Assembly (NCBI GenBank): GCA_039621445.1 | Contig: CP154954.1 | Span: 32,403,455-32,467,454 of the forward strand | DNA from: Euglena gracilis | Taxonomy: Eukaryota | Direction: 5' to 3' | DNA: 64,000 nt | Part shown: piece after piece, positions 6,449 through 57,150 of the stretch | How positions within the stretch are numbered: the stretch's first letter is position 1 | Layout: every line of letters starts with the position of its first letter | Program-made: the position numbers and the translations under genes | The notes under the pieces: model-generated | The model's database searches: none | Told to the model about the DNA's origin: nothing | Seen by the model: only the letters and a program-made list of their open reading frames with translations

Positions 6449-7015
6449 ATGGCCCCAGGGCCTTCTAAACATTTCAGAGAGGTGGTCCCAGGGCCCCAGA
6501 CTTTTGCCATGATGCTCCCAGATTCTGCCCCAGGGCTCAACACATTTCAAACCAAATCTGGCACAGAAAAGTTTTTCAGAGATCTTGCCCCAGGGACCAA
6601 GGCCTCAGCCATGATGCTGTCCAATTTTGCCCCAAGGCTCAACACATTTCAAGCCAAAACTGGCACAGAAAAGTTTTTCACAGATGTGGCCCCAGGGCCC
6701 AAGGCTTTTGCCATGATGCTGTCAAATTTTGCCACAGGGCTCAACACTTTTCCAACTAAATCTGGCACAGAAAAGTTTTTCAGAGATGTTGCCCCAGGGC
6801 CCAAGGCTTCAGCCAACACATTTCAAGCCAAAACTGGCACAGAAAAGTTTTTCACAGATGTGGCCCCAGGGCCCAAGGCTTCAGCCATGATGCTGTCAAA
6901 TTTGGCCCCAGGGCTCAACACGTCTCAAGCCAAAACGGGCACGGAAAAGTGTTTCACAGATGTGGCTCCAGGGCCCAAGGCCGTAATGCCGTCAAATTTT
7001 GCCCCAGGGCTCAGC
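6449..7015 (+). repeat. Coding tandem repeat, 102-bp (34-aa) period, about 5.5 copies
   Basis: GCCATGATGCT recurs at 6506, 6608 and 6710; unit AMMLSNFAPxLNTFQAKTGTEKFFxDVAPGPKA stays in frame; one unit is shortened. Confidence 0.92.
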
Positions 7016-7051
7016 ACAATTCCAGCCGTAATAGCGTGGGGTTTCCACCTA

Positions 7052-7105
7052 CGGGGAAGAGGCGGGCTACTGTCGTGTGGCGACGTTGAAGAAAACCCTG
7101 GCCCA
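7052..7105 (+). other. 2A/StopGo peptide RGRGGLLSCGDVEENPGP
   Basis: Canonical D(V/I)ExNPGP, very close to T2A (EGRGSLLTCGDVEENPGP). Confidence 0.93.
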
Positions 7106-13300: not shown

Positions 13301-13836
13301 TACGTCAGCAGGCCAACCATGGACAGCCTGTTCGCCACCCTCGCCTTCCCCAAACTGGTGCTTCGGACAGTCCAAAGTGCGGGGCGTGAGGCCGATGAGG
13401 ACATCTCCACCGCGATCAGGCGGCGCGTCCAACTGTTCCGGCAAGGGGACAATGGAACGCTGATGACAGCGCTGAGAAGCGCCACCCGCCTCCCACCAGC
13501 GTCCATCGAGACGCGGGCAGCCAAAAGAGCACGCACCGAGCCCGCCGCCATACCGGCCGCTGTTCTCCGCCGTGCCCGCACGTTGGTGGGGGAAGGGGCC
13601 CCTGCGAAGGCCCTGCAAGTTCTCTTGTTCGAAGGAACCCACCGCTCTTCCGATCCGGCTGTCTGGGTCAAACTGCAGGAGTTGCATCCCGCTGGACGCC
13701 CAGTAAGCCTCAATGCGCTGCCCGGCGAAGTACCACCGTTCCCGGATGGTAAACAGGTGCGGTGGAAGGAGCTCCTCAGGGACGCAATACTCCGTTTCCC
13801 TCGGACCTCCTCGCCGGGCCCTTCTGGTTTGCGCCC
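10312..13836 (-). mobile_element. CRE-like non-LTR retrotransposon, family C, with inverted 5' part
   Basis: Minus strand: LQVDLKNAF, WYLDDGVL, CAGC..H..C, RHNAVQ, RPADLLL..AVDIAV and the 3' motif at 10312-10364. Plus strand ~12865-13836: 2A and pre-RT region ending SSPGPSGLRP. Confidence 0.92.
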
Positions 13837-13914
13837 TTGCGCCTTGCCGCCTTATTTTTTTTTTGGATTACTCTGGTGTGCTGGGTTCGGCCGAAGTCCT
13901 GTGCGGGTGAGAGT
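11215..13914 (+). repeat. 2.7-kb direct duplication, copy 1
   Basis: Near-identical to 36963-39663. Confidence 0.97.
12952..13011 (+). other. 2A peptide TKTGRWSLLSCGDIESNPGP
   Basis: Canonical DIExNPGP in ORF 12811-13101. Confidence 0.9.
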
Positions 13915-36962: not shown

Positions 36963-39663
36963 GATGTCTACCGCGGTCGGTTTCCCGTCTTGCCATGTTG
37001 CCAGCAACAGGTCCGCTGGTCGCAGGGAGGCGTCTGGCTGGTTTGGTACTGGCACCTCGCGTTGGACACTCTGGCCGTTCGCGGGCAGGAGGTTGAATAA
37101 GGCTTCCTGAACGGCGTTGTGTCGGCTTGCAAAGTTGTTCCGAATGCAGCACATGTCGTGATCCCCGTGGATGTCTGCCACAGAATGGCACCCCGCGCAC
37201 GTGGTTGGCGTGTCAGCCAGGGGCAGCCCAAGCCACCACTTTAGGCCAAGGCAGTAGTCGGCGGGCTCAATCACCGTGTGCAGAGCCTCATTGGGGGCTG
37301 CTGCCATCCAGCCGTGGCCGATACCGTTGAGCTGTTCCATAAGACGTGTCTGGTCCCTTGCAGACCACGTGGCGATGAGGGCGTCCACATGGGCCTTGGA
37401 TAGTTGGGTCTGCCACCATTTCTGCGAGGTGTCATTTGCCGATGCAGAGGCGAAGGCTGCTGATGCTGTCAGCCGGTTGCTCTCAGGGTGACGGGTGCCG
37501 AGGACGGAACCAAGGTCACTGGCGGCTTGCTGGCAGAGCCGGTCGTCCGGGGCGGCCGCGTAGCTTGGACATGCGACCCGCTTATGTCCATGTGTGTAGA
37601 ACTGGCACAGGGCGGCGGTACGGGCTGCTGCTTGGTGGGAGGCGGGAATACGAAGGCCACACCCACCTTGTGACAGCGGTAGCGAGGCCTGCAGGCGGTG
37701 GTCTGTGCTGAGGGCTTGGCCGATGATGTCCTCAAAGGCACCGAAGATCGTCTCACTGCACCGAATCACTTCACCCTGCGCCTGGTAGGGATCAGAGGCG
37801 CGCAGGAGGTGGTTAACTCTGCAGCCGTCCAGTCAAGACCTCAGGATGTGGTGCGCCAGCTGGGGGTCAGTGACCGAGGTGACTAGGTCCGCAGCCTGAT
37901 CCAGCTTGGTTGTTGCCTCCGTCCATGCTGCCACTGTGTGCCCTGCCGTGGTTGGGAAGTCGACGGGGCAGCCCAGGACAGTGATCCCAGAGCCCTCGAC
38001 CCAGGGTACAACTTGAACCTTCTCGCGGTCAGGGAGTGCGCCAGCAGCCGGACCCCATACGACGCATTTCGCCGGGTTCAATTGGACCCCGTTGCGTGCG
38101 CCTTCGGTCCGCAGGAACTCGAGGCACTTCTGCAAAGCCCAGGGCTGACCGACAAGCACCCCATCATCCAGGTACCATGAGGACCAGAGCAACTCTGCTT
38201 GCTGGCTGATGGTCTCGCTGATGGTGTGGAGGCCCACTGCAAAGCCGATGGGTCCCAGGGGGCAACGCTGGTGTGTGCCTCTCGTGGAGTGGAGCACGCG
38301 TCCTCCGCTGAACAACGGTGCCGGCTGGCCGTAGGCGAAGCGCAGGTAGTTGAAAAGCGCTGGAGTGCGCGTTTGCGCTTCTTGTAGAAGGACATTTCTG
38401 TCCGGTGTGTTGAAGGCGTTCTTCAGGTCCACCTGAAGAATGGCCCAGTTCCCCTGCGGATCCAGTTTCCGGACCAGACTTTGGGTTGCCATGGCGACGG
38501 ATTCGGACGCATTGGGGACCCCAACCCCTACCTGCAGGGGACTCAGCCGGCCCACTTAGTCCTTGGCGGCGCTGGTGTGTAGGAGGGCTTTCCCAACCAA
38601 TCGCCGAAGGGGAATCGCGCTTACCTGCCGTGACTCCCCGGTGCACCGTGGACCACATTATGATCAACCTGGTGGACAACTCCCCTATTGCCGAGCGCCC
38701 ACCAAGACGGGCCGAGGGAGCCTCTTGTCCTGCGGGGACATTGAAAGCAACCCAGGTCCGCCGGGAGGCAGAAAGAGGTCAGCCACGTCGGTTGTCGTGT
38801 CCGCGGAGGCGCCTCGTGACAGCACAAAACGATTTAGCACACCCAGCTGACGACACACCCGCGGCTGTGGTGGTCGACCAAAGCGGAAAGAACTCTGACC
38901 TCCGTCACGGTGGCCCGCCTGGAATCACCATCCCGCCCCAGCCGGCCAACCTCCAGGAGGTCTTCCTCTGCCGCGCAAACACGGTCCTTCATGTGCCTGC
39001 GGCCAACCAACGTGACGTCTCCGAGACCCTCTCCAATGTCATAGAGGAATACGTCAGCAGGCCAACCATGGACAGCCTCTTCGCCACCCTCGCCTTCCCC
39101 AAACTGGTGCTTCGGACAGTCCAAAGTGCGGGGCGTGAGGCCGATGAGGACATCTCCACCGCGATCAGGCGGCGCGTCCAACTGTTCCGGCAAGGGGACA
39201 ATGGAACGCTGATGACAGAGCTGAGAAACGCCACCCGCCTCCCACCAGCGTCCATCGAGACGCGGGCAGCCAAAAGAGCACGCACCGAGCCCGCCGCCAT
39301 ACCGGCCGCTGTTCTCCGCCGTGCCCGCACGTTGGTGGGGGAAGGGGCCCCTGCGAAGGCCCTGCAAGTTCTCCTGTTCGAAGGAACCCACCGCTCTTCC
39401 GATCCGGCTGTCTGGGTCAAACTGCAGGAGTTGCATCCCGCTGGACGCCCAGTAAGCCTCGATGCGCTGCCCGGCGAAGTACCACCGTTCCCGGATGGTA
39501 AACAGGTGCGGTGGAAGGAGCTCCTCAGGGACGCAATACTCCGTTTCCCCCGGACCTCCTCGCCGGGCCCTTCTTGTTTGCGCCCTTGCGCCTTGCCGCC
39601 TTATTTTTTTTTTGGATTACTCTGGTGTGCTGGGTTAGGCCGAAGTCCTGTGCGGGTGAGAGT
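36963..39663 (+). repeat. 2.7-kb direct duplication, copy 2 (part of element C including the inversion and the 2A at 38701-38760)
   Basis: Near-identical to 11215-13914; 2A reads TKTGRGSLLSCGDIESNPGP. Confidence 0.97.
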
Positions 39664-41919
39664 AATGCACATACCAAGTTCTCAAGGAGGGAGGGGGGGA
39701 GAATCGAGGGTGAGGTGAAGGGCGGTGAAGGGCACAGTACGGAGGGGGGATTGCGAGTGTGAGAGGAAAGTGTACAGCGGCTGGGAAGGTTCAATGGAAC
39801 GGCCATGGAGACTGTTGAGTGTTGAGGTTGTGGCAGCGACAAGTTTAGGTTTTGGGGAGTTGGCTCAGGGAAGGCTCTGTTTTCAGTGCGGTAAGGGTTT
39901 GGACGTCATTGTAGACTTGGTCCATTCGTTGCAAGGTGTTTTTTGCTTGTTTTGTGGTTTAATTGGTCTTGTGGTTAGTTATGCGTACGGTTGGCGTGTC
40001 ATGGAGCCTTCGGCCCTGTGGTCAAATTGCTCACTCCGTTTCATATGGGCAATGGGTGGTGGGTTACACCGTTCCAGATGGCTCCGCCACAGTTCCTCAA
40101 GCCTCAGGCGGGCCAGTTCTCTTGCCAATGTCTGACACAGGTTGCTGATGGTTGGGTACCTTTGTTTACTTTTTTGACAAGTTGTGGATGGTTTAAGGAC
40201 AATTTTTTGTTCTGGGTCTAGGGGTCGTAGTGGTCTTCTTTACAGACAATACGGCTGGTGTATGGTGTTGGTTACTTCTGGATCTGTGTCGTTGCCTGCA
40301 TACCGTCCCCAGATTACTTGTCGCGCGATCTCTCGCGCAACAGTGATTGATAGAAGTTGCCATGTGTCTGCTTCAGTTTTGCGTTTTGACCATGCATCTT
40401 GTTGACCGAGGAGAAGTTTCATCAGTGTTGACATTAAGGATAGCGCTTCTTGGCCTAGGCTGCCATAGCAGTCAACAACAAATGGAAGGCAGGTCCACCC
40501 CCTCCTCCCACAGGTGGCGTCATATTTTGAATGCTTTTCTTTCTCTTGGCGTTCATACCATTCAGTTAGTTCAGCTGTGTCACGCAACGGTCTGTACGGT
40601 GCTGCTGTGTGTCTCACTGTGATATCCACTGCTCCAGGACCATTGGCGTCAAGTCTGCTGATGAGGACATCGCCCGGGCGTGTTCTCTCTAGACCTCCTT
40701 GTTCTTTTTTTGCTGTAAACCCAGCATCATGTGCCAGTTGGAACACAAAGTCCTGGATTGCACCATGTCGCCGCGTGATGCCATTTGAGCTGCAGCATAC
40801 AAGGTGATTACCCAGGTTGTCCATTGGCTTGGTGCAGCGTGGGCACGTTGATCCCGTTGGTGGGCAAACTGGTGCTCACAGTGACCACTTTAGAAATCCT
40901 TTGAATTCGGCAGAAGCGACCAATGTTTTCAGTCCAGAGGATGGTGTGACAGAAGCCCAGGCCATTGCGTGGGGCCGCTGTTGGCTTGCGAACCGGACGG
41001 CGTCTTGACCGTGAAGGTTGGAGGATAATACCTTTTGTCGTTGTTTCGCAAAGCATTCACCCCACCACTTCTGTTGAATGTGAGGGCTTTGGGCTTCGTT
41101 CAGGAGTGATACATCCGCGGCCCATGTTTGCGTTGGGGGAGTTCCTTCGAGGATGGATTTGGCAGAGGACAGGCACTCCGCAGTGTCTTTCGGTACTCCT
41201 CGGTCTGCAAGGCCCAGGGTGCGTCTGCCATTGCTGACAAACGTCACAATGCCGGATATACGTGCTGGGAGACGTTCCCGTGATGGGTCCCGAATTCCGA
41301 GTCCGCCATGACGCACGGGTAGGGTGGCCTGAGCCCATTGGTTGTCATCGATTGGGGATCCAACAATGTTGCTCATTGTGTTCCTGATTTCTTTGGTCAA
41401 CAGAGCACATGCGTCATTTGCCTGCCCCAGTTCTGTTGCACGCAGGAGGTCATTAACTTTGCAAGCATCTAGGCAGGTTCGTAAGAGGCAGAACTGAATA
41501 TGGGCTTGCGGCAGGTTCAAAAGGGCCCGGCAAGCTTTCTGCACACCTGTTGCACGTTCAGCCCACACTTCCCCCGCAAAGCCTCCGCTTTGTGGATGGC
41601 ATACCGGGATTCCCAGGGCCCGTATACCAGAATTAGGGGAGTAGTTCACGATTGGGACTGCACGAAGTGGGCTGTTTTGCGGCATTTCAGCACGATTGGC
41701 TTCTGTTGCTGCAGGGCCCCACAGGCGGCATTTTTTTGCGTTGAGGTGTATGCCTAGTAGCGTCCCCTGTCGTTGAATTTCTGTAATTGCTGCATGTAAT
41801 TGTGGGAGGGTTCCCAGGATGTGTCCATCATCCAAATACCACAATTGCAGTGGCACCACGTCTTGCAAGGACTCGACGAGAGATTGCAACGCCAAGGCGA
41901 ATCCGGCTGGGCCACAAGG

Positions 41920-43264
41920 TGAAGGCGGGGGCCCTGGCCCAGATGGCCTTTTCCTTGGCATTGCAATCTCCAATCTGGACTTTTTCAGTGATATCTGAAC
42001 TTGTCCAAAACTTGATCTTTTCTGCCTTCCAACCTTCCCAGATCACTGGCAATAAGATGAAAACAGTACTGAAACTCCACGCAAACAGTACATGACCCTT
42101 GCCACCTGCAAAGTAAGGCAGCAGGATTCAAATTTAAATTAGGATCTGCGCGAACCTACACCCCCCTGCTTCAAGATCTTGTCAACGACAAGGTCACACA
42201 ACACCGTAGGCCAGTGAGCGCTGGGACCCCCGGGTGTCGTTGGGGTGCCCTTGCCATCATTGATGCCTCAATGACAGAAAAGGAATCCCAACCGCCCAGG
42301 GCATCCCCCCAGAGCCTTTGGAAAAACTGTCGCAAACTGGTCCTTCCCCCCTTTTTCGACCAGCTTGCCACAGTAATCCCCAAAGGGTAGGGAGATGGAC
42401 AACAAACAAACAAAACGGGAGAGAATTGTGATTCGGAGGGGAAAAATTACAAAGCAGAAATGCAAAGCGAACTGACGCGATTGTCCACAGCCAAGTCCAA
42501 TTACCACCACCTCGACGCCAAATCACACACGGCAGAGGGTTTCTGCGTAAACGCTCGGATAACCCACAACCAGAGGGGCAGCAGCCAGCGGCATTGCCAC
42601 AGCCGTACGCGGCGATGACCACATTCGACCACCAGTAATTGAAATTGCGCGGCCATCCACAGCCACAGCAGCAGCAGCCTGCAATGTGAAATCTTCCCAC
42701 GAATCTGTCAAATCTTACTCCTGCTGGCGGCTGGCGGCTGCAATCTGCTGCCGCCTCCTCCGCCTCTGGAGTGTTCTGGGCTTGGGCTTGACTCCATCTG
42801 TCTGAACTTCCCTGTCCACAGTGGTAATCCCAGATGATGATTCCAATCTTGGAGATTGTGATGCCACAGGCATGGCCATGTTAGACACATCCTTTGACGT
42901 TTTCTGGCCTTTCAGACTTGACTTCTGAGGTTTGCTGGCCGGATTCCAATTGCTCTTCTCAGGCCATTGGCTCCCTTGGTGGCAATCTTGGCTTGTCTGT
43001 TTGTACGGGAGGTGTACTGTTTGTGAAGGCGGGGGCCCTGGCCCAGATGGCCTTTTCCTTGGCATTGCAATCTCCAATCTGGCCTTTTTCAGTGATATCT
43101 GAACTTGTCCAAAACTTGATCTTTTCTGCCTTCCAACCTTCCCAGATCACTGGCAATAAGATGAAAACAGTACTGAAACTCCACGCAAACAGTACATGAC
43201 CCTTGCCACCTGCAAAGTAAGGCAGCAGGATTCAAATTTAAATTAGGATCTGCGCGAACCTACA
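41920..43264 (-). mobile_element. Non-autonomous LTR retroelement (TRIM-like), 241-bp LTRs
   Basis: Direct repeats 41920-42160 and 43024-43264, each TG...CA; 4-bp TSD AAGG (41916-41919, 43265-43268); purine tract AGCAGGGGGG before the minus-strand 3' LTR; splits the RT motif QGDP|CGP. Confidence 0.95.
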
Positions 43265-46200
43265 AAGGGTCCCCTTGTTGTACGCCAGAGGCACTCCGAA
43301 GGTGTGGTGACCCACAAAAGAGCGGGCTGTGTTCGACGTAGCAACTCTCGAACCAAACGTACGCCTCCGGGCAGCGTTTAGCCACTTCAGCAAGGACTGT
43401 CTTTCTTTTCACGCAATTAAAAGCATTGCTGAAATCTACCTGTAACAAAGCCCAGGTGTTGTCCTGTTGCATGTGCAGGTGATTCACTTCTTGCTGCAGT
43501 CCCATAGAAATGAGTTCACATGCCCCCTGGACCCCTACACCGCATTGTAGTGGCTGCAGTTCTTTAAGGCGGTCCCTGATTTTGGGGTGCCTCATCAAAT
43601 ATTTGTCCACCAATCGGCGCAGGCATTCCCCAGCTGCAATTGGTCGCGTGCCATCCTTCTTTGGGTCAGAAATGGGTTGGTATTGCCAAGCTCATCAAGG
43701 TTTTCGCTTGGATTGCAGGGTTTTCGAAGAGGAGTCAAACGGGCACCAGCGAAAACCCATGCCGCAGAGTTGTGAATTCCGTTTGTCAAACATGTTCGGA
43801 CGAATTGGTCCAAAATTGTGAGGAGTTGTTCTGATTGTGTCCCCAGGGGATCAGAGAGTATGTCTTTAAGATGATCTGGACGAAGTCCAGACGGTCCTGG
43901 TGAGGACTCCTTCGGGAAAGACATGACTGCTTTCCGTATTTCAATTAGGCGCTCCCTGGTTGCATCTTCACTGAGATCGAATTCGAGGCGAGGGAAGTCC
44001 GGAGGCAGATTTTGCCTTCCAGGTTGGGGTTCAGGAGGGTGCAAGGCAGCCAACCGTTCCAAGATTAGCGGGTCATCTGCATCTTGGATTCCATCAGAAG
44101 TCAGCATGCGGCAGGCTTTACTGACCGCCCCATGGCTGACAAGGCTTTGAACACGGTTGCACAATCTTTCTTGGCTTTCTGCATCGAAATTTTTTGTTTG
44201 ACTTCGTGTTCTCTTCTTTGGGTTTTGTGCATCGCGAATTTGGCGAGTCTCATCCCACGAATCTTCTGTGGACCGGTTGAGGTAGGCATTGGCTCTCTCA
44301 GTAATTTTCCGTCCAACTGCAGCCCAATGGCTTTTCCCGCTCCGCTTCAGTGGAGCAAGCACAGCTTGTGGGAAGCACCAAAGTGTGTGTAGGGTTTCCC
44401 ATCCTGGTTTTGATACAAAGCGACTGAGGGTGCTGCAAAAGGCGAGCCCAACGTTTCGCAACGCTCACCGTGGGATATGGACCAACGTGCCCCGCGTGTC
44501 TTGGGAAATTTCTTCCCAAGATGGCTGCAGTGGTGGGCAAGGTTGCGAGAAAGGAGTGACTTGCAGCGTATCAGCGTTCGTCGAGGATTGCGCTGGTGCT
44601 ACAGCCACGGGGTGCTGCGGCCTTCGACCATTTAGGCACTCTTGCTCTTGCCCTTGTGGTGAGGACGGCACAAAATTCTCAATCATCCCCTGGCCCTGCG
44701 GCGCACACCCGTGAATTTCGGAAATCGCTGAGCGCACCCGGGACTCTAGTTCGTCAATGACCATGATTTGCTCAGCTGCAGCTGCCCCGGGGCATTACAA
44801 CCTGGGACAAAGTAGGCGAGAACAGCGGCGTCGAGTGCATTGGAAACCAAGATCCAAGGAGTGGTCGCTCCGTCGGCGGCACAGCAGAGGTCTGTGCGGC
44901 TGAGGCCATTTCAACGTCCTCCTGCTGGGGAGGGCGGGTTTTTGTGGGACCTGGGTTGCTTTCAATGTCGCCACAACTGGCAAGGCTTTTACCCCTGCCA
45001 CACCAGGGGGGACTGTACCCATACCGCGTTTTTTCCTGGTCAATCGGTTGCCGTACGTGGTTGGCGTGCCCTGGGGCCACATTTGACAACTTAGAAGGCC
45101 CTGAGGCCATAGTGCAAGTTGGTCGTCCGCAATGGGGCCGGGTGCTAGGTCGCAGGGATAGGGGTCCTTCACGTGGGGTTATCCGGTGAATAGGTCCTGG
45201 CTCAAGCTGAACGTCACCACAAACTGTGACATCTTGGTGTGTGGGCCTCTCGGTTTTGACAGCGTGGTTAGGGCTTATGTCACCTTGTTGGTCACCGCGT
45301 TGGCAGTTTGGTTGTCTTTGTGCTGTCCGTCGTGCCCTCCGGACGTGACGGTTAACAGAAACTGCTGATCTTGTCGGACGTAACAAGGCCATGATGTCCA
45401 GGATATCAACGGTGTGTACATTCAATGGGGAGAGGTCGGACGAGGAGGGCTCCGTTGGAGGTACTCTGGGGAAAGTGCTATCGGCCGGAGAACGTTGGGT
45501 AGTGTCATTAGGTGAATGGGGGGCAGGAAGAAATGAAAAGCCTCGCCGATGTTGCATACTTCGGACCATAAACATGTCAGCAACCACATAATGGCATGCA
45601 CACTCGATGGGGAGTCGTGACGTGGTGGTCGATGTGGCCATAGCCCTATGAGCACAAACAGAACTCCTCTCAAAACTTCCCAACATTCGGTGAGCTCATA
45701 GACGGTAGTGTCCTCAACCAGGACATCGGTAGGGAAGGCGTCTCGGAACGTTTGAAGTTCTGCATCCACCTCTTGAAGGCTCGCCAGCAGTCTGTGCCGA
45801 ACGAAGTTTTCTTGAGGTCCCCTGGAGACAGGGATTGTCGGTCTTTCCATGGTGGCCAGAAGGAAGTAGATGGGTCCTGGTTGTGTTTGGACGTCACCAT
45901 GGGTGGTGATTCGTTCCCCCCTTCCAGTCGGCTGGTGTCCTGCTGAAAACTTTTCCCGGGTTTGTTCTGCCGTGTATCCTCGGCTTGTTACAGAGTGTAC
46001 TTTTGCTGTCTCAGTAGATGGAAATACTGTGGCTGAAAAAAACAGGGCAGGTTTCCCTGTGGTGCAAGCACCAACCTGCCGAGGCAGTGATGGTTTCAAT
46101 GTCACACAAAGTGCATTTCAGCCAGTATGTAGCTTTGGGAAGAAGTGTACGGGAGGAGCCATCGGGGCCTTGCCGCAATGGTATTTCGGCCTTGATCCGA

Positions 46201-48309
46201 AAGAAATCAGTCATGTTCATGGCAACAAGTTGGTCCAATAGATCCATGACTTCACCACAGGGTCCATCAAATGCCGTCGGCGGCATTTGATGGACCTGGA
46301 TGAAAATGCGTCTTCCGGATTCTTCCCCCCGTGTGGGCCTGCAGAGCAGAGGTGTATGTTGCCGACTGTTTCTGCCATGTGGAATTTTTTTGTGGCAGCA
46401 CAAGAGTAATAGTCCGACAGGGAGTCATTTGAGTCATCAAGATCGCTGGCGGTCCATACAGACGGGGAAAGACGATCAGCCAATCCAACCTCACACGCAA
46501 ACTGTAACGGTCTGGGCATGTCATCCATCTGCCAAATTCTTGGGCAGTATCGCCAGGCAATGGGCAGGGTTGGCTCTCGGGAGGGTGTCAGCCTCTTCTT
46601 TGTCCTCGGGGGGCGGACTGCTTCTGCTGCAGGCACTTTTTGTTTGATTTTTTGTGCGATAGCTCGGCGTACTTTTTCTGTGTGCAACATGTCCACTCCC
46701 TCCTCATGTTGTTCGTCTGGTCGGTGTTGATGAAGAATCTGGGCGATTCTGATCCGTTCCAGGATGAGGTTCTTTTTTGGTGGGTGGGGGGGGGCGATTG
46801 CACAACGTTTGGCGCTGCCAGTGGCAACGTGAGTTTCATGTCTGTGTGCACCAATTTTTGTGACTGCCGAATGTCCACTGTTCTGCCAATGTCGACCCAC
46901 TTTTCCTGAATGTTGGCCAGTTTTCTGGCGACCATCTCGTGAAATAAAATGCCTCCTGCTTGCTGTCTCATGCGCCTTCTCCAAAAAAATTCTTCCCTGA
47001 AGGACCGAAACTCTGGTGTTTCCCAAACTGGGACCCCTTCAAGGGGGGTGTTGGGTGGGGAGGCTGGTAAATCTGTTGCCTGGGGGGGGTCTTGCCATTG
47101 AAAGGGGCTGGGTTCCTCCTGCAGGATCACTGTGCCCAGTTTTGCCCACTGTGTGCCATCAAACATGGTGGGTTTTGTTGGAATTTTAAAAATGCGAAAT
47201 GGTGGGCCTGGCCCCCCCCCTCTTGCAGGGGGGCTGATATTGGGGGCTGGTGCTGAGATCTTTTGGGGTTGCATTTGGCTGGGGTTGATGATCCTCCTCT
47301 TTTGGGTGGGGGGGGGTTGTTTTGCAGACTCCCTTTGATACGGAGTTGCCTTGGGATGAAATTCTTGATCCACTTGTTTTACTGGGTGAAGGTATTGTGT
47401 TGAGTTGTCCCCTCTTTGGGGGGGACTTTGTGAGACAAAAGACAAAGGGAAAGCTGCAGGCAGAAGAGCACATTGGAAGGCTGATGGTGATGCCAGTACC
47501 ACATCTGGGATTAAGGGTGCTGGCAGGCTAGGGTTGTGTAATGGTGTTGGGGGGTACTTCTGAACTCTGGCCTGTGCTGAGAAAGGCTCTGAGGCTTCTG
47601 AAGAGTTCAGCCTCTCTCCTTCTCTGCTCCTCTTCTCTGATCCAATTCTTCCTCTGGTCATCTTCTCTGCTCCAGTTTGATTGCAGTGGTTGCTGAGATT
47701 GCTGGGGTTCACCCCAAAGGTTGGTCTGTGATGGAATGTACATTTGTATGATTGATGTGACAGATGGACATACTTGATTTCTGCCCACTGGTGGGCATTG
47801 GAATGGGTTGTTCACTGGAATGCCCACTGATGGGCCTGACTGTGGAATGCCCACTGATGGGCTTGCTGTACAGGGGGGCCCCAGACTCACTTGCTGATGG
47901 AGCTGGGGCTGAGGAGAACTCTGTTGAGATATATGATAACTGGGTCGACCTCTCTGCCATGGGGGCTTGTAATCTCTTCCAAACCTTCTCTGTAGGTACT
48001 CTTTATGCTCTTCCCTCTCTTGCCATGTCCTCTTCTTTCTCTGTGAGCTGCTGTGTTGACTTTCTCTGTCACTATGTACAGGGCGGTCAGCAATGAGTCG
48101 TTGTGCCACAGCAGTGGTTAGCACCGGCACCAACAGCGGTAACAACATCTTGGCCAGCAGCTCCAACTGTCCAGTGTCCACTGCAACAGTAGGTGTACTT
48201 GAAGGGTTGGTTGTGGTAGCAGCTTGGTTGACAAGGGGTGTATTGTCTTGAGTCTTGGGGTCTTCTGGAGGGCCATCCGGCCACTTTGCAGCCATGGTGA
48301 TTATGCAGA

Positions 48310-48334
48310 CGAAAAAAAATAGACACTCAGAAAG
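48310..48334 (-). other. Euglenid spliced-leader exon copy CTTTCTGAGTGTCTATTTTTTTTCG
   Basis: Matches 25 nt of the 26-nt Euglena SL as I recall it; 14 nt upstream of the element's ATG. Confidence 0.92.
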
Positions 48335-51300
48335 CCTGATGAGTGTCTTATGAGAATTTTTTTTTGGAAATTGGAACTCTCCGACCTGTCTTCAGCGGCC
48401 TAGGAGGATCACTCCGAGCCGAAGTCCTGTGCGGGTGAGAGTAATGCACATACCAAGTTCTCAGGGTGGGAGGGGCGAGAGTCGAAGGTGAAATAGAAGG
48501 GCGGTGAGGGGCACAGTACGGAGGGGAGATAGCGAGTGTGAGAGGAAAGTGTACAGCGGCAGGGAAGGTTCAATAGAACGGCCACGGGGACTGTTGAGTG
48601 TTGAGGTTGTGGCAGCGACAAGTTTAGGTTTGGGTTTAGGGGAGTTGGCGCAGGGAAGGCTCTGTTTTCAGTGCGGTAAGGGTTTGGACGTGTTTTTAGT
48701 CTCGTGGTTGGTTATGCGTACGGTTGGTGTGTCATGGAGCCTTCGGCCCTGTGGTCAAATTGCTTACTCCGTCTCATATGGGCAATGGGTGGTGGGATCC
48801 ACCGTTCCAGATGGCTCCACCACTGTTCCTCAAGCCAATTGACAGCCACTTCTCTTGTCAATGTGGGACACAGGTTGCCGATGGTTGGGTACCGTTGTTT
48901 ACTTTTTTGACAAGTTATGAATGGTTTAAGGACAATTGTTTGTTCTGGGTCTAGGGGTCGTAGTGGTCTTCTTTACAGACAATACGGCTGGTGTATGGTG
49001 TTGGTTACGTCTGGATCTGTGTCGTTGCCTGCATACCGTCCCCAGATTACTTGTCGCGCGATCTCTCGCGCAACAGTGATTGATAGAAGTTGCCATGTGT
49101 CGGCCTCAGTTTTGCGTTTTGACCATGCATCTTGTTGACCGAGGAGAAGCTTCATCAGTGTTGACATTAAGGATAGCGCTTCTTGGCCTAAGCCGCCATA
49201 GCAGTCAACAACAAATGGAATGCAGGTCCATCCCATCCTCCCACAGGTGGCGTCATATTTTGAATGTTTTTCCTTCTCTTGGCGTTCATACCATTCAGTT
49301 AGATCAGCTGCGTCACGCAACGGTCTGTACGGTGCTGCTGTGTGTCTCACTGTGATATCCACTGCTCCAGGACCATTGGCGTCAAGTCTGCTGATGAGGA
49401 CATCGCCCGGGCGTGTTCTCTCTAGACCTCCTTGTTCTTTTTTTGCTGTAAACCCAGCATCATGTGCCAGTTGGAACACAAAGTCCTGGATTGCACCATG
49501 TCGCCGCGTGATGCCATTTGAGCTGCAGCATACAAGGTGATTACCCAGGTTGTCCATTGGCTTGGTGCAGCGTGGGCACGTTGATCCCGTTGGTGGGCAA
49601 ACTGGTGCTCCCAGTGACCACTTTAGAAATCCTTTGAATTCGGCAGAAGCAACCAATGTTTTCAGTCCAGAGGATGGTGTGACAGAAGCCCAGGCCATTG
49701 CGTGGGGCCGCTGTTGGCTTGCGAACCGGACGGCGTCTTGACCGTGAAGGTTGGAGGATAATACCTTTTGTCGTTGTTTCGCAAAGCATTCACCCCACCA
49801 CTTCTGTTGAATGTGAGGGCTTTGGGCTTCGTTCAAGAGTGATACATCCGCGGCCCATGTGTGCGTTGGGGGAGTTCCTTCGAGGATGGATTTGGCAGAG
49901 GACAGGCACTCCGCAGTGTCTTTCGGTACTCCTCGGTCTGCCAGGCCCAGGGTGCGTCTGCCATTGCTGACAAACGTCACAATGCCGGATATCCGTGCTG
50001 GGAGACGTTCCCGTGATGGGTCCCGAATTCCGAGTCCGCCATGACGCACAGGTAGGGTGGCCTGAGCCCATTGGTTGTCATCGATGAGGGATCCAACAAT
50101 GTTGCTCATTGTGTTCCTGATTTCTTTGGTCAACAGAGCACATGCGTCATTTGCCTGCCCCAGTTCTGTTGCACGCAGGAGGTCATTAACTTTGCATGCA
50201 TCTAGGCAGGTTCGTAAGAGGCAGAACTGAATATGGGCCTGCGGCAGGTTCAAAAGGGCCCGGCAAGCTTTTGCACACTTGTTGCACGTTCAGCCCACAC
50301 TTCCCCCGCAAAGCCTCCACTTTGTGGATAGCATACCGGGATCCCAGGGCCCGTATACCAGAATCGGGGGAGTAGTTCACGATTGGGACTGCACGAAGTG
50401 GGCTGTTTTGCGGCATTTCAGCACGATTGGCTTCTGTTGCTGCAGGGCCCCACAGGCGGCATTTTTTTTTTTTGTTGTGTATGCCTAGTAGCGTCCCCTG
50501 TCGTTGAATTTCTGTAATTGCTGCATGTAATTGTGGGAGGGTTCCCAGGATGTGTCCATCATCCAAATACCACAATTGGAGTGGCACCACGTCTTGCAAG
50601 GACTCAACGAGAGATTGCAGCGCCAAGGCGAATCCGGCTGGGCCACAAGGGTCCCCTTGTTGTACGCCAGAGGCACTCCGAAGGTGTGATGACCCACAAA
50701 AGAGCGGGCTGTGTTCGACGTAGCAACTCTCGAACCAAACGTACGCCTCCGGGCAGCGTTTAGCCACTTCAGCAAGGACTGTCTTTCTTTTCACGCAATT
50801 AAAAGCATTGCTGAAATCTACCTGTAACAAAGCCTAGGTGCTGTCCTGTTGCATGTGCAGGTGATTTACTTCTTGCTGCAGTCCCATAGCAATGAGTTCA
50901 CATGCCCCCTGGACCCCTACACCGCATTGTAGTGGCTGCAGTTCTTTAAGGCGGTCCCTGATTTTGGGGTGCCTCATCAAATATTTGCCCACCAATCGGC
51001 GCAGGCATTCCCCAGCTGCAATTGGTCGCGTGCCATCCTTCTTTGGGTCAGGAATGGGGTTGGCATTGCCAAGCTCATCAAGGTTTTCGCTTGGATTGCA
51101 GGGTTTTCGAAGAGGAGTCAAACGGGCACCAGCGAAAATCCATGCCACTGAGTTGTCAATTCCGTTTGTCAAACATGTTCGGATGAATTGGTCCAAAATT
51201 GTGAGGAGTTGTTCAGATTGTGTCCCCAGGGGATCAGAGAGCATGTCTTTGAGATGATCTGGACGAAGTCCAAACGGTCCCGGTGAGGACTCCTTCGGGA

Positions 51301-52274
51301 ATGACATGACTGCTTTCCGTATTTCAATTAGGCGCTCCCTGGTTGCATCTTCACTGAGATCGAATTCGAGGCGAGGGAAGTCCGGAGGCAGATTTTGCCT
51401 TCCAGGTTGGGGTTCAGGAGGGTGCAAGGCAGCCAACCGTTCCAAGATTAGCGGGTCATCTGCATCTTGGATTCCATCAGAAGTCAGCATGCGGCAGGCT
51501 TTACTGACCGCCCCATGGCTGACAAGGCTTTGAACACGGTTGCACAATCTTTCTTGGCTTTCTGCATCGAAATTTTTTGTCTGACTTCGTGTTCTCTTCT
51601 TTGGGTTTTGTGCATCGCGAATTTGGCGAGTCTCATCCCACGAATCTTCTGTGGACCGGTTGAGGTAGGCATTGGCTCTCTCAGTAATTTTCCGTCCAAC
51701 TGCAGCCCAATGGCTTTTCCCGCTGCGCTTCAATGGAGCAAGCACAGCTTTTGGGAAGCACCAAAGTGCGTGTAGGGTCTCCCATCCTGGCTTGGACACA
51801 AAGCGACTGAGGGTGCTGCAAAAGGCGAGCCCAACGTTTCGCAACGCTCACCGTGGGATATGGACCAACGTGCCTCGACTGTCTTGGGAAATTTCTTCCC
51901 AAGATGGCTGCAGTGGTGGGCAAGGTTGCGAAAAGGGAGTGACTTGCACCGTATCAGCGTTCGTCGAGGATTGCGCTGGTGCTGGGGCCACGGGGGGCTG
52001 CGGCCTTCGACCATTTAGGCACTCTTGCTCTTGCCCTTGTGGTGAGGACGGCACAAAATTCTTCATCATTCCCCTGGCCCTGCGGCGCACACCCGGGGCC
52101 CCCGTTCAAACTGGGAAACGGCATTATAGCCTGGGACAAAGTAGGCGAGAACAGCGGCGTCGAGTGCATTGGAAACCAAGATCCAAGGAGTGGTCGCTCC
52201 GTCGGCGGCACAGCAGAGGTCTGTGCGGCTGAGGCCATTTCAACGTCCTCCTGCTGGGGAGGGCGGGTTTTTGT

Positions 52275-52335
52275 GGGACCTGGGTTGCTTTCAATGTCGC
52301 CACAACTGGCAAGGCTTTTACCCCTGCCACACCAG
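52275..52335 (-). other. 2A peptide CGRGKSLASCGDIESNPGP
   Basis: Canonical motif; same peptide in copy 1 at 44946-45005. Confidence 0.9.
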
Positions 52336-53609
52336 GGGGGACTGTACCCATACCGCGTTTTTTCCTGGTCAATCAGTTGCCGTACATGGTTGGCGTGCCC
52401 TGGGGCCACAGTTGACAACTTAGAAGGCCCTGGGGCCAGAGGGCAAGTCGGTCGTCGGCAATGGGGCCGGGTGCTAGGTCGCAGGGATAGGGGTCCTTCA
52501 CGTGGGGTTATCCGGTGAATAGGTCCCGGCTCGAGCTGAACGTCACCACAAAGTGTGACATCTTGGTGTGTGGGCCTTTCGGCTATGACAGCGTCGTTAG
52601 GGCTTATGTCACCGTGTTGGTCACCTCGTTGGTAGTTTGGTTGTCTTTGTGCTGTCCGTCGTGCCCTCCGGACATGACGGTCAACAGAAACTACTGATCT
52701 TGTCGGACGTAAGAAGGCCATGATGTCCAGGATATCAACGGTGTGCACATTCAATGGGGAGAGGTCGGACGAGGAGGGCTCCGTTGGGGGTACTCTGGGG
52801 AAAGTGCCTCTCGGCCGGAGAACGTTGGTAGTGTCATTAGGTGAATAGGGGGCAGGTAGAGGTGAAAGGCCTCGCCGATGTTGCATACTTCGGACCATAA
52901 ACAAGTCAGCAACCACATAATGGCATGCACACTCGATGGGGAGTCGTGACGTGGTGGTCGATGTGGCCATAGCCCTATGAGCACAAACAGAACTCCTCCC
53001 AAAACTTCCCAACATTCGGTGAGCTCATAGACGGTAGTGTCCTCAACCAGGACATCGGTAGGGAAGGCGTCTCGGAAAGTTTGAAGTTCTGCATCCACCT
53101 CTTGAAGGCTCGCAAGCAATCTGTGCCGAACGAAGTTTTCTTGAAGTCCCCTGGAGACAGGGATTGTCGGTCTTTCCATGGTGGCCAGACGGAAGTAGAT
53201 GGGTCCTGGTTGTGTTTGGACGTCACCATGGGTGGTGATTCGTTCCCCCCTTCCAGTCGGCTGGTGTCCTGCTGAAAACTTTTCCCGGGTTTGTTCTGCC
53301 GTGTATCCTCGGCTTGTTACAGAGTGTACTTTTGCTGTCTCAGTAGATGGAAATACTGTGGCTGAAAAAAACAGGGCAGGTTTCCCTGTGGTGCAAGCAC
53401 CAACCTGCCGAGGCAGTGATGGTTTCAATGTCACACAAAGTGCATTTCAGCCAGTATGTAGCTTTGGGAAGAAGTGATTGGGAGGAGCCATCGGGGCCTT
53501 TCCGCAACGGTAGTTCGGCCTTGATCCGAAAGAAATCAGTCATGTTCATGGCAACAAGTTGGTCCAATAGATCCATGACTTCACCACAGGGGCCATTAAC
53601 TGCCGTCAG

Positions 53610-53675
53610 CGGGCCTGGATTGGTTTCCACATCACCCATTGTTGTCAGGGAATCACCTCGCCCCGTCTTCAGATA
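53610..53675 (-). other. 2A peptide LKTGRGDSLTTMGDVETNPGP
   Basis: Canonical motif; deleted down to ...HPGP in copy 1 (~46291). Confidence 0.88.
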
Positions 53676-55699
53676 CGCGTCTTCCGGCTTCTTCCCCCCG
53701 TGTGGGCTTGCAGAGCGGGGGTGTATGTTGCCGACTGTTTCTGCCATGCGGATTTTTTTTGTGCCAGCACAAGAGTAATAGTCCGACAGGGAGTCATTTG
53801 AGTCATCAAGATCGCTGGCGGTCCATACAGACGGGGAAAGACGATCAGCCAATCCAACCTCACACGCAAACTGTAACGGTCTGGGCATGTCTTCCATCTG
53901 CCAAATTCTTGGGCAGTATCGCCAGGCAATGGGCAGGGTTGGTTCTCGGGAGGGTGTCAGCCTCTTCTTTGTCCTCGGGGGGCAGACTGCTTCTGCTGCA
54001 GGCACTTTTTGTTTGATTTTTTGTGCGATAGCTCGGCGTACTTTATCTATGTGCGACATGTCCACTCCCTCCTCACGTTGTTCCTCTGGTCGGTATTGAT
54101 GAAGAATCTGGGCGATTCTGATCCGTTCCAGGATAAGTACTTTTTTGGTGGGGGGGGCGATTGCACAACGTTTGGCGCTGCCAGTGGCAACGTGAGTTTC
54201 ATGTCTGTGTGCACCATTTTTTGTGACTGCCGAATGTCCACTGTTCTGCCGATGTCGACCCACTTTTCCTGAATGTTGGCCAGTTTTCTGGCGACCATCT
54301 CGTGAAATAAAATGCCTCCTGCTTGCTGTCTCATGCGCCTTCTCCAAAAAAAATTCTTCGCTGAGGGACCGAAACTCTGGTTTTTCCCAAACTGGGACCC
54401 CTTCCAGGGGGGTGTTGGGTGGGGAGGCTGGTAAATCTTTTGCCTGGGGGGGGTCTTGCCATGGAAAGGGGCTGGGTTCCTCCTGCAGGATCACTGTGCC
54501 CAGTTTGGCCCACTGTGTGCCATCAAACGTGGTGGGTTTTGTTGGAATTTTAAAAATGCGAAACGGTGGGCCTGGCCCCCCCCCTCTTGCAGGGGGGGCT
54601 GATATTGGGGGGGGTGCTGAGATTTTTTGGAGTTGCATTGGGCTGGGGTTGATGATCCTCCTCTTTTGGGTTGGGGGGGTTGTTTTGCCAACTCATTTTG
54701 ATTTGGAGTTGCCTTGGGATGAAATTCTTGATCCATTTGTTTTACTGGGTGAACATATTGTGTTGAGTTGTCCCCTCTTTGGGGGGGATTTTGTGAGACA
54801 AAAGGGAAAGCTGCAGGCAGAAAAGCAAAGGCTGATGGTGATGCCAGTACCACATCTGGGATTAAGGGTGCTGGCAGGCCAGGGTTGTGTAATGGTGTTG
54901 GGAGGGGGGGGACTTGAGTACTCTGGCCTGTGCTGAGAAAGGCTCTGAGGCTTCTGAAGAGTTCAGCCTCTCTCCTTCTCTGCTCTTCTTCTCTGGTCCA
55001 ATTCTTCCTCTGGTCATCTTCTCTGCTCCAGTTTGATTGCAGTGGTTGCTGAGATTGCTGGGGTTCACCCCAAAGGTTGGTCTGTGATGGAATGTACATT
55101 TGTATGATTGATGTGACAGATGGACATACTTGACTTCTACCCACTGGTGGGCATTGGAATGGGCTGTTCATTGGAATGCCCACTGATGGGCCTGACTGTT
55201 GAATGCCCAATGCTGGGCTTGCTGTACAGGGGGGCCCCAGACTCACTTGCTGATGGAGCTGGGGCTGAGGAGAACTCTGTTGAGATATATGATAACTGGG
55301 TCGACCTCTCTGCCATGGGGGCTTGTAATCTCTTCCAAACCTTCTCTGTAGGTACTCTTCATGCTCTTCCCTCTCTTGCCACGTCCTCTTCCTTCTATGT
55401 GAGCTGCTGTCTTGACTTTCTCTGTCACTATGTACAGGGCGGTCAGCAGTGAGTCGTTGTGCCACAGCAGTGGTTAGCACAGGCACCAACAGCGGTAACA
55501 ACATCTTGGCCAGCAGCTCCAACTGTCCAGTGTCCACTGCAGAAGTAGGTGTACTTGAAGGGTTGGTTGTGGTAGCAGCTTGATTGACAAGGGGTGTATT
55601 GTCTTGAGTCTTGGGGTCTTCTGGAGGGCCATCCGGCCCCTTTGCAGCCATGGTGGTTATGCAGACGAAAAAACTTCTTTTTTTATTTATTTATGCAGA

Positions 55700-55721
55700 C
55701 GAAAAAAAATAGACACTCAGA
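55700..55721 (-). other. Spliced-leader exon copy (5'-shortened) TCTGAGTGTCTATTTTTTTTCG
   Basis: Identical to the last 22 nt of the SL copy at 48310-48334. Confidence 0.9.
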
Positions 55722-55769
55722 TCCATATCGTTTTCTTGTCTGGCGGTTTTCTCTTGCGGCTTTTGGAAA

Positions 55770-57150
55770 CGGTGGTGGGGCGAACCGAATCCACCGACCA
55801 GTGGCACAGCCTACTGGATTTGAGTGTTCGAGGGTGCGAGGCTATATACAACGAAGGAGCGTGGGTCGAGCGGTGAGAGCAAGGGCAAAGCCCAAGCAGA
55901 GAGTGATGGTGGGTGGAGAGGAGTGAAGTGTGCATGCGCGGTGGTGTTCTCCGGCTTTGTGGCTCCGGAAAGCTGGTGCAACGAGGAGCATTTTCACCTT
56001 ATGAGTTCAGGATCATACGATCTGTGGCTCTTTCGGCCAACCGCAGCTGCCGTGCAACTGCACGGGCCAGGGTGATGGCCAGGTTTTCGGTCAATTCCTG
56101 AAGTTTTCGTTGTTTGGCTGTTCCAGAATATGAATTGGTCGCGAGGCGTAAGACATCGCGTAGCAGTTTGGAGGCTGCCGGTCCTGTGCAACCCCAGGGG
56201 TTAAATGCAGCCCCGATGTACTCCCACTGGTGGCGGGCGCACCGTTCTTCAGCTTGTGTTCTCTTGTGCATTTCAGCGTCTGGTAAAGTGCGCTGAACTC
56301 GGGTCAAGTTCAGAGGCCACCGTGATGGGGCCAGCGGGGGTTCAATGGTGACATCCACAGCGAGATGCTTCCCTTTGTTCCACCCCAGGAGAAGGAGATC
56401 AGCGTCACGGGTGCCACCCTCGCATCCCTGTTCTTTGCGAAGAGTGATGCCGGAGCGCTGGCACAGGTCAAAATGGCGTCACGAACACAGTTGTGCCTTT
56501 CTGTTATGCCATTCCTTCTGCAAGCCAGGAGGTGATCGCCAAATGGATCGACTGCCTCAGCACACAGGGGGCACAGGAGCATGTCCGTTGTTGGGATCAG
56601 GGGTAAGCCAGTCCAGAAGCGTAGAAGCAGTCTGTATTCGTCCGGAGCCAGGACGGTATTCACCGACCTGGATGGTAAGACGGTCATCCAATTTTGAAGG
56701 AAGGCAGAGGATTGGCAACGAAGCCTGGCAATGTCCCGAAGAGGTGCACCCTCCTCCAAAGTTGCCACGCGCACGGCGTGGAAACGTTCGGCCCACCACG
56801 ATTGAGTGGAGTGATCTGGGGTGGAACAGGCCAAGGAAGAAGGGTTGGCGATCCAGGAAGCCAATGGTTCGCTGTGTGCGGCCCAAGTGTCACGAGCCAG
56901 TTTGGCGACGGGGATGGTATCTGGTAGCGGGAGCAAGCGCCAGGGCGGAGGGATATTGAAGCCTGGCGCTCGTTGGGAAAAACCCACGCAAGCAGCCAAA
57001 CGGGCAGCTGGTCTTTCCAACTGGGGTCTGTGATGCCCCACCCTGTCTTATTGCACGGCAAGGTGATTTGTTTCCAATGCAAGGCAGACAGGGGTGCCCC
57101 CACAATGTCACAGGCAGCACTCCGGATGGAGTCGGAGATCACTTGCACAC
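55770..57150 (-). mobile_element. 5'-truncated CRE-like retrotransposon, family D
   Basis: WKQITLP...GWGI, CPLCAEAVDPFGDHLLAC, RHNCVRD, RLE ...DVTIEP...GAAFNPWG; 3' motif at 55770-55824. Confidence 0.9.

Follow-up and report, generated by a model that had tools for sequence, protein, structure and literature searches.

The window analyzed here, a 64,000-nucleotide stretch of Euglena gracilis DNA from contig CP154954.1, holds at 48357-55720 of its minus strand a 7.4-kb full-length, dead copy of a polyadenylated retrotransposon that lacks long terminal repeats (non-LTR), which we call element B copy 2. It begins at 55720 with CTGAGTGTCTATTTTTTTT, other genomic copies having a loose end at 55673; an ATG lies at 55651-55649, a stop codon at 48975-48973, and a 3' untranslated region (UTR) of ~600 nt leads to an A9 tail at 48365-48357. 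Four peptides of the 2A type lie in its coding region upstream of a protein that has both a reverse transcriptase (RT) domain and a restriction-like endonuclease (RLE) domain. The copy itself is an ordinary dead repeat and the interest is in the architecture of its family: we consider it likely that the region makes up the 5' two-thirds of one dead member of a very high-copy family of polyadenylated, R2-like RLE elements whose open reading frame (ORF) encodes a StopGo polyprotein.

A six-frame scan of the window for D[VI]xxxPGP found the four motifs on the minus strand at 53610, 53201, 52521 and 52275, where a first-pass annotation made from the letters alone had placed them. No. 1, GDVETNPGP (D to P, 53633-53610; peptide 53666-53610, TGRGDSLTTMGDVETNPGP), and no. 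4, GDIESNPGP (52298-52275; peptide 52331-52275, CGRGKSLASCGDIESNPGP), which stands directly before the RT protein, are canonical and agree with the class A consensus D(V/I)ExNPG/P. No. 2, GDVQTQPGP (53224-53201; peptide 53257-53201, TGRGERITTHGDVQTQPGP), and no. 3, GDVQLEPGP (52544-52521; peptide 52577-52521, ...QDVTLCGDVQLEPGP), do not; both have Gln for Glu, and the Asn is replaced by Gln in no. 2 and by Glu in no. 3. The three GRG leaders reported earlier are also present, as TGRGDSLTTM-, TGRGERITTH- and CGRGKSLASC- before nos. 1, 2 and 4, and no. 3 is without one. The whole window contains six matches to D[VI]ExNPGP and ten to D[VI]xxxPGP, against chance means of 0.0 and 0.12 in 300 first-order Markov simulations. 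The degenerate codons of nos. 2 and 3 are two to three base changes each from canonical codons, so the degeneration is old and not fresh decay. None of the 40 best-supported substitution rows (401 further rows) changes a motif 2 or 3 codon in other genomic copies.

The motifs are 409, 680 and 246 nt apart in copy 2. Measured from the ATG through the motifs to the stop, the proposed product sizes of about 680, 136, 227, 82 and 1100 amino acids (aa) hold, but motif 2 is out of frame with nos. 1, 3 and 4 (409 = 3x136+1; 680 = 3x226+2) and the ORF is broken in this copy. Segment 1 (53613-55651, minus strand, as are the others) is Q/P-rich, and no family was found for it; its frame is uncertain, as the stretch 54490-54050 can be read through in two frames and the genomic copies differ by several indels, and the indel table cannot fix it because several subfamilies differ. 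Segment 2 (53204-53609, 136 aa), home to a small Cys2-His-Cys module, is disrupted near 53365 by a frame change of 1 nt. Segment 3 (52524-53200, 227 aa) is an orphan with a frame change near 52826 and without an NPPF core, and segment 4 (52278-52520, 82 aa) is an orphan as well. The RT-RLE protein of ~1100 aa follows at 48973-52274.

All matches of the C-terminal piece of B were metagenome proteins, with identities of 57% at most. When the N-terminal piece of the RT protein was used to look for longer proteins, six relatives emerged. Three of these, P0038 (1736 aa), P0039 (1849 aa) and P0042 (1613 aa), each consist of one ORF with three 2As, all nine of them canonical, followed by RT and an RPGD-type RLE, and P0040 and P0041 are RT-RLE alone. 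The fragments P0043-P0048 have two to four canonical 2As each, or up to five when near-canonical forms (GVEPNPGP, GDAESNPGP, NIESNPGP) are counted, and these forms show no replaced Glu or Asn; in P0047 two 2As are 15 aa apart, from the end of one motif to the start of the next. Most 2As of the relatives read (T/S)GRGxxLLxCGD(V/I)ExNPGP, which is close to T2A, a peptide of insect-virus origin that serves as a tool in biotechnology. These intact environmental relatives suggest that a long protein cut by 2As is normal for the group to which B belongs, and they support the earlier proposal of a modular polyprotein, their canonical in-frame 2As standing between recognizable modules.

The 2A form varies within the group and may occur beyond it. 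The three 2As within residues 330-622 of P0042 read W-V-(R/H)-x-(L/V)...DGD(I/V)ExNPGP, unlike the GRG..LLxCGD of the other relatives, and resemble the hybrid class A/B form described in bioRxiv 10.64898/2026.09.24.754024 (this and the other papers cited here are represented by the available parts of their texts). A metagenome scan with the 2A pattern yielded 76 stretches, three of which are relatives, none close. Contig L002 of the metagenome has the peptide GGRGSILTCGDVESNPGP at 386-475, in the early part of an ORF of 557 aa that has C2H2-like zinc fingers but no RT. Genes or mobile elements of a different kind may thus also have the 2A type of the relatives.

Alignment of P0038 to the window with tblastn connects three of the four motifs of B to canonical 2As. 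The first 2A and zinc module of P0038 (residues 190-295) align to 53666-53352, that is to motif 1 and segment 2, and motif 1 likewise aligns with the first 2A of P0039. Residues 308-374 (GDVESNPGP and ~45 aa) align to 53266-53057 at motif 2, the third 2A (623-668) aligns to 52343-52209 at motif 4, and the RT-RLE part (742-1734) aligns to 51943-48982 with 51-53% identity. Motif 3 found no counterpart in relatives, either by tblastn with P0038 or by phmmer. Judged from these alignments, motif 2 is a decayed ancestral 2A site.

A Cys2-His-Cys module of ~100 aa recurs among the relatives. We built a hidden Markov model (HMM) from eight stretches of seven relatives, whose own matches are thus by construction; it also matched P0039 (5e-4), a second stretch of P0047 (1e-4) and segment 2 of B, with E 1.1e-7 in copy 2 and 1.4e-7 in copy 1. 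Direct counting on CTLCDIETITASAGWCLHHRETC gives C-x2-C-x13-H-x4-C with the first His and x14/x3 with the second, in keeping with the CTLC...HH..C first reported for the 136-aa piece. Segment 2 is thus the zinc module of the relatives.

The other segments were less informative, and the profile search of each inter-2A segment proposed with the first-pass annotation succeeded for segment 2 and left segments 1, 3 and 4 without detectable relatives. Pfam returned nothing in segments 1-4. Only the first ~45 aa of segment 3 resemble a relative, namely the beginning of P0038's Dam-like segment; a Dam-like core was not found in B by the module HMM or by hhalign of segment 3 with X at the break (probability 0.2), nor was an SLBP-type domain by Pfam search and an SLBP-like HMM. 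A phmmer search of 1.84e9 representatives with the piece from the tail of segment 3 through motif 3 and segment 4 to motif 4 gave six matches, five of them retroelement-like and best around no. 4, and the sixth a repeat protein at query residues 74-114. Segments 3 and 4 appear to be orphans among these representatives.

Could motif 3, or motifs 2 and 3 together, be chance look-alikes that were never 2As? We consider this unlikely. Motif 3 is without a GRG leader and without a counterpart in relatives, and neither HMM nor phmmer searches recognized anything around it, as would be expected of a coincidence. However, GD[VI]xxxPGP is expected by chance 0.01 times per 64-kb window, no. 2 aligns to a canonical 2A of P0038 and has TGRG..TT.GDV in common with no. 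1, and no. 3 retains the LCGDV context (Cys-Gly-Asp-Val) of the family 2As.

The protein downstream of no. 4 consists of an N-terminal domain, RT, a thumb/linker, a CCHC knuckle and RLE. The RT (Pfam RVT_1, ~50830-50450) scored E 3e-9 and 37.3 bits over a cut-off of 29.6; the knuckle, C238..C255, lies at ~49578-49525 and the RLE motifs RPGD..AVDITV at ~49410-49350, all on the minus strand. In an alignment of 40 sequences (the 438-aa C-terminus and 39 relatives), C238, C241, H251, C255, R263-H264, R293-P294 and D311 are conserved. The best matches to a profile built from 16 relatives were R2 proteins (R2Tg, E 1.9e-21), with LINE-1 ORF2p next, and a second profile stretch aligned C..C..H..C, RHN, RPGD and VDxTV, the CCHC/RHN/PD..D region of R2, to the R2Tg endonuclease. 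A single-sequence search of PDB with P0040 gave no match.

Structure prediction agrees with the profiles. The AlphaFold2 (AF2) model of the C-terminal 438 aa has a predicted local distance difference test (pLDDT) score of 91.1 and a predicted template modeling (pTM) score of 0.89, and the seven PDB entries that it matched at E <= 0.001 are without exception R2 proteins (E 2.6e-8 to 4.6e-6) with 13-14% identity over the fold match, followed by Prp8 and then by small PD-(D/E)xK nucleases. Pfam found no apurinic endonuclease (APE; Exo_endo_phos) in nine pieces of the window (E <= 0.01) or in six relatives (E <= 0.1). The description of the last piece as RT-RLE is well borne out, and family B is best described as a predicted RLE-type, R2-like non-LTR retrotransposon, the R2 comparison being with PDB chains.

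The position before the RT protein occupied by no. 4 is conserved and also occupied in two other element families of the window, C and E. The 2A of family C is at 38701-38763 on the plus strand (motif 38737, TGRGSLLSCGDIESNPGP), 155 nt upstream of the RT N-terminal domain (38915-39583), and its duplicate at 12952-13014 (motif 12988) reads GRW. That of family E is at 7046-7108 on the plus strand (motif 7082, RGRGGLLSCGDVEENPGP), with RT fragments downstream at 7381-9458. These are the canonical 2As upstream of the RT region that had been reported for the two families, but the one in family C is in a different frame from the RT domain and the one in family E meets a stop four codons on. Directly upstream of the family E 2A, at 6472-7024 (plus strand), a peptide that recurs as ...TGTEKFFTDVAPGPKASAMMLSNFAPGLNT... 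is encoded by imperfect tandem repeats of ~100 bp.

A second copy of the element, B copy 1, lies at 39639-48330 on the minus strand, head to tail with copy 2 and 95-97% identical to it by self-comparison. It keeps motifs 2-4 at 45872, 45192 and 44946, whereas a deletion of ~40 nt has removed motif 1. The coding region of copy 2 contains five frame changes and two in-frame stops (51850-51848 and 50836-50834); a frame change and a 55-nt deletion lie near 52096-52119, and 1-nt differences at 50341 and 50271. Most of these lesions, stops included, are common to copy 1, so the two copies are duplicates of one already dead copy and not independent insertions.

Other genomic copies were assessed by aligning contigs of four sequencing runs to copy 2 and taking depth as summed word depth. 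Roughly half of the words sampled from the element occur in 14 DNA runs from a single organism and in one run from a second, and the summed word depth in run X1 is near 1e5, which indicates a very high-copy family. At 53365, contigs with one base fewer account for 13095/24528 of the depth in X1 and 1140/1558 in X13, X15 having no value; at 52826, contigs with one base more account for 15222/68474, 531/728 and 7.3/7.3 in X1, X13 and X15. Since 409-1 and 680+1 are divisible by three and the frames are open there, such copies have motifs 1-4 in one frame: spaced 136, 227 and 82 codons, the four motifs lie in a single open frame (54692-51957). The copy 2 stop at 51850 is replaced by another letter in all aligned contigs of these three runs. 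One base more is found at 50341 in 10087/10459 of the depth in X1 and 340/491 in X13, and at 50271 in 7336/32589 and 1264/2535, with none in X15 at either place.

Another possibility, which we rate as quite unlikely, is that the frame changes are native and that the element has separate or frameshift-linked ORFs, as in an ORF1/ORF2 organization or with programmed frameshifting, instead of a single polyprotein. The frame changes are indeed common to both window copies, frameshifted forms make up a large part of the X1 depth, and the reading frame is likewise lost downstream of the 2As of families C and E. Yet the intact relatives are single ORFs, the window copies are tandem duplicates with common stops and thus not independent, in-frame variants occur at both inter-motif sites (53365 and 52826), and a 2A is meaningful only within a continuous frame.

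We favor the StopGo polyprotein, and several observations weigh against it. There is no intact copy in the window, and nothing there could be translated as proposed. The continuity from no. 4 to RT is broken in both window copies, so the evidence for this link comes from the relatives; the frames of no. 4 and of RT overlap in copy 1 only at 44794-44775. The in-frame form at 52826 makes up only 22% of the X1 depth, so frameshifted variants are abundant too. That motifs 2 and 3 are degenerate in other B copies may hold, seen only through the 40 best-supported rows. Contigs of presumed-RNA runs and of one leaf-litter metatranscriptome cover 28/30 and 23/30 bins of the element with 90-99% likeness, which is weak evidence for transcription and no proof of expression, since these contigs may contain DNA. 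The small shares of runs and of the metatranscriptome are no evidence of habitat.

In the model that we propose, the single long ORF of the lineage would be a StopGo polyprotein with accessory modules strung upstream of RT-RLE. Every module would end in a T2A-like (T/S)GRGxxLLxCGD(V/I)ExNPG/P, where the ribosome would release the module and continue. RNA-binding and accessory proteins would be made in excess over RT-RLE, yet coupled to it, and the arrangement would do the job of ORF1 and ORF2 without a second initiation. In B, nos. 1 and 4 are canonical and should skip, no. 2 stands at an ancestral site but has lost the essential Glu and Asn, and no. 3 would be a further decayed or an incipient 2A copy. 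We infer that nos. 2 and 3 do not skip from what is known of class A 2As together with a published mutational scan, in which two class A peptides had no active substitution at D12, E14 or N16 except E14H (bioRxiv 10.64898/2026.09.24.754024). The scan fits the earlier suggestion that the two non-canonical sites are leaky or dead. An intact B element would then most likely give three products and not the five first implied, namely segment 1, a fused segment 2-3-4 of ~445 aa containing the Cys2-His-Cys module, and RT-RLE.

Five products would require all four sites to skip, with the host ribosome tolerating Gln in place of Glu and Gln or Glu in place of Asn. GDV and PGP are intact at nos. 2 and 3 in both copies, no. 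2 retains its GRG leader, the codon changes there are old, and His can stand in for Asn in class B 2As (PMC12338488), all of which could speak for retained activity. The scan, with E14H as the sole active substitution at E14 or N16, and the relatives, with nine of nine 2As canonical in the three intact proteins and no Glu or Asn replaced in the fragments, make it very unlikely.

Finally, the block of 2As could be an RNA virus fragment that the retrotransposon captured or that was inserted beside it, in line with the peptides' nearness to insect-virus T2A. Although 2A is mainly viral (PMC12338488), this is highly improbable, as the inter-2A segments match no viral family, at least three element families of the window, and the RT-RLE relatives too, have the same 2A type in conserved places, and the whole unit is repeated as DNA to very high depth.

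Among the modules between the 2As of the relatives, SLBP_RNA_bind (Pfam cut-off 27) was matched by P0039 with 50.6 bits and P0042 with 72.7 bits, P0038 remaining below with 20.1. A module with WANPPF is present in all three sequences covering that place (P0038, P0039 and P0043). Pfam Dam scored 26.4 and 22.9 bits in P0038 and P0039, both below its cut-off of 28.1, and did not match P0043. The AF2 model of the WANPPF module (pLDDT 68.6) had a cap adenosine-N6 methyltransferase as its best Foldseek match (E 0.011), and the best 50 rows of VIA-align are nearly all methyltransferases or methyltransferase folds, adenine-N6 and other class I enzymes being nearest. The Z scores, 7.3 at best and 6.0 for EcoDam and T4 Dam, are all under the tool's caution line of Z 8. 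Together these models suggest a Dam-like, methyltransferase-like module. At the sequence level, no methyltransferase emerged from profile searches A2 and A3; the only non-R2 matches of A2 were two chains aligned through their final ~19 residues, which fall on the 2A columns and are probably leftover 2A tags of expression constructs. A region search with the Dam-like part of P0043 returned only itself, and Pfam found nothing in P0044-P0047.

The SLBP, Cys2-His-Cys and Dam-like modules vary in order and copy number between the 2As. P0038 and P0039 read SLBP, zinc module, Dam-like, RT; P0043 reads Dam-like, zinc module, RT; P0044 reads Dam-like, zinc module, zinc module; and P0042 has two unassigned modules before SLBP and RT. 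A tentative reading, possible but in our view somewhat short of probable, is that 2A acts as cassette boundary as well as processing signal and that the lineage is the first among non-LTR elements with both a Dam-like methyltransferase and a histone-mRNA-type RNA-binding domain. Each piece being released alone, modules could be gained, duplicated, swapped or lost regardless of their folding context. If so, decay of internal 2As, as at nos. 2 and 3 of B, would fuse neighbors into new proteins.

Earlier work placed 2A in APE-type elements and linked it to 'young' ones (Odon 2013, PMC3708506, and a commentary, PMC3894237). This agrees with the first-pass statement that 2A in non-LTR elements is mostly APE-type and single, but the wider record goes further: eukaryotic genes have up to three 2As per gene (PMC12338488), 2A is reported before APE-type ORF2p and in Dualen (bioRxiv 10.64898/2026.06.17.732966), and 580 RT-bearing contigs with 2A, mostly non-LTR-like, are described without the B-lineage architecture in the available part of bioRxiv 10.64898/2026.09.24.754024. 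Our literature search found no paper joining 2A with RLE-type elements, although supplementary contig lists of 2025-2026 papers may include this family.

Among known systems, L1Tc/Ingi of trypanosomes and the CR1, L2, Crack and Rex1-like elements of sea urchin, amphioxus and molluscs have, as here, a class A 2A in frame upstream of the enzyme, which is held to free an N-terminal portion as translation proceeds (PMC3708506). Their endonuclease is an APE, and a single 2A lies close to the N-terminal end of ORF1 or of ORF2 (PMC3708506), whereas the B lineage has a C-terminal RLE and three to four 2A positions between modules. R2 (R2Bm, R2Tg; PDB 8gh6, 9dou, 9nl3) shares the thumb-linker-CCHC-PD-(D/E)xK order and fold and the single ORF, but has N-terminal zinc-finger/Myb DNA-binding domains, no 2A and a 28S ribosomal DNA (rDNA) target; the B lineage has a series of 2A-separated modules at its N-terminus, and a poly(A) tail. 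Multi-2A polyproteins of picorna-like viruses are also split by several 2As (bioRxiv 10.64898/2026.09.24.754024), and in P0047 2As even stand back to back; the viruses are RNA with capsid and RNA-dependent RNA polymerase (RdRp), and B is a genomic retrotransposon.

Dualen/RandI and the 2A ORF2p-like proteins of Haematococcus and Symbiodinium come close in having 2A before a non-LTR enzyme with extra N-terminal domains, deubiquitinases in their case, and Dualen has RLE (bioRxiv 10.64898/2026.06.17.732966). Dualen retains APE, however, and the cargo of this group is DUB/PPR instead of the SLBP-like, zinc and Dam-like modules of the B lineage; the accessible text describes a 2A before the endonuclease and not a chain of 2A-separated modules (bioRxiv 10.64898/2026.06.17.732966). 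The WANPPF module of P0038, P0039 and P0043 can be likened to that of DAM-carrying DIRS and LTR retrotransposons (bioRxiv 10.64898/2026.05.21.726589). That report, as far as its text is available, covers DIRS and LTR elements and has non-LTR elements in the introduction only, and family B has no detectable Dam-like core.

Retrotransposon 2As, formerly tied to 'young' APE-type elements with mostly one N-terminal site, would now extend to an 'ancient' RLE lineage with at least three. Three or more 2As would turn one ORF into a multi-protein operon filling the role of ORF1 and accessory genes, which bears on how single-ORF retrotransposons gain RNA-binding and chromatin-related helpers. T2A-like peptides that are canonical, near-canonical or decayed form a natural series within a single context, which may prove useful for testing the sequence rules of StopGo, and environmental eukaryotes appear to be a rich source of such elements.

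The surroundings of the two B copies are crowded with related sequence. Both copies have identical 5' ends (CTGAGTGTCT...) and unlike flanks, and no target-site duplication was recognized when the two tandem copies were compared. Only 26 nt separate the A9 tail of copy 2 from the 5' end of copy 1, and a perfect 9-bp inverted repeat, AGACACTCA / TGAGTGTCT, with a 10-nt loop extends at 48356-48321 (minus strand) across this spacer and the first bases of copy 1. On the other side, at 55721-56600 (minus strand), the RLE C-terminus and 3' UTR of another RLE-family element adjoin the 5' end of copy 2, so that different elements of the group stand head to tail. The RT of copy 1 is interrupted at 41919-43264 by a 1346-bp insertion with two 242-bp direct repeats at its edges, 99.6% identical by blastn and 1104 bp apart from start to start, which looks like a miniature terminal-repeat element. 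Many fragments of related elements make up the remainder of the window, and Rfam found nothing across it.

A different kind of repeat occupies 13915-36960 on the plus strand, where ~4.5 tandem units of 5.1 kb, 85-98% identical, have a GC content of ~46% against 55-60% around them. Each unit has an ORF of up to 472 aa with a coiled-coil-like middle and a Trp-rich end, ...WNSWGWFPPYQWW, for which there is no Pfam match. The array sits between 2.7-kb direct repeats (11215-13914 and 36963-39663) that are 98.9% identical and contain retroelement fragments.

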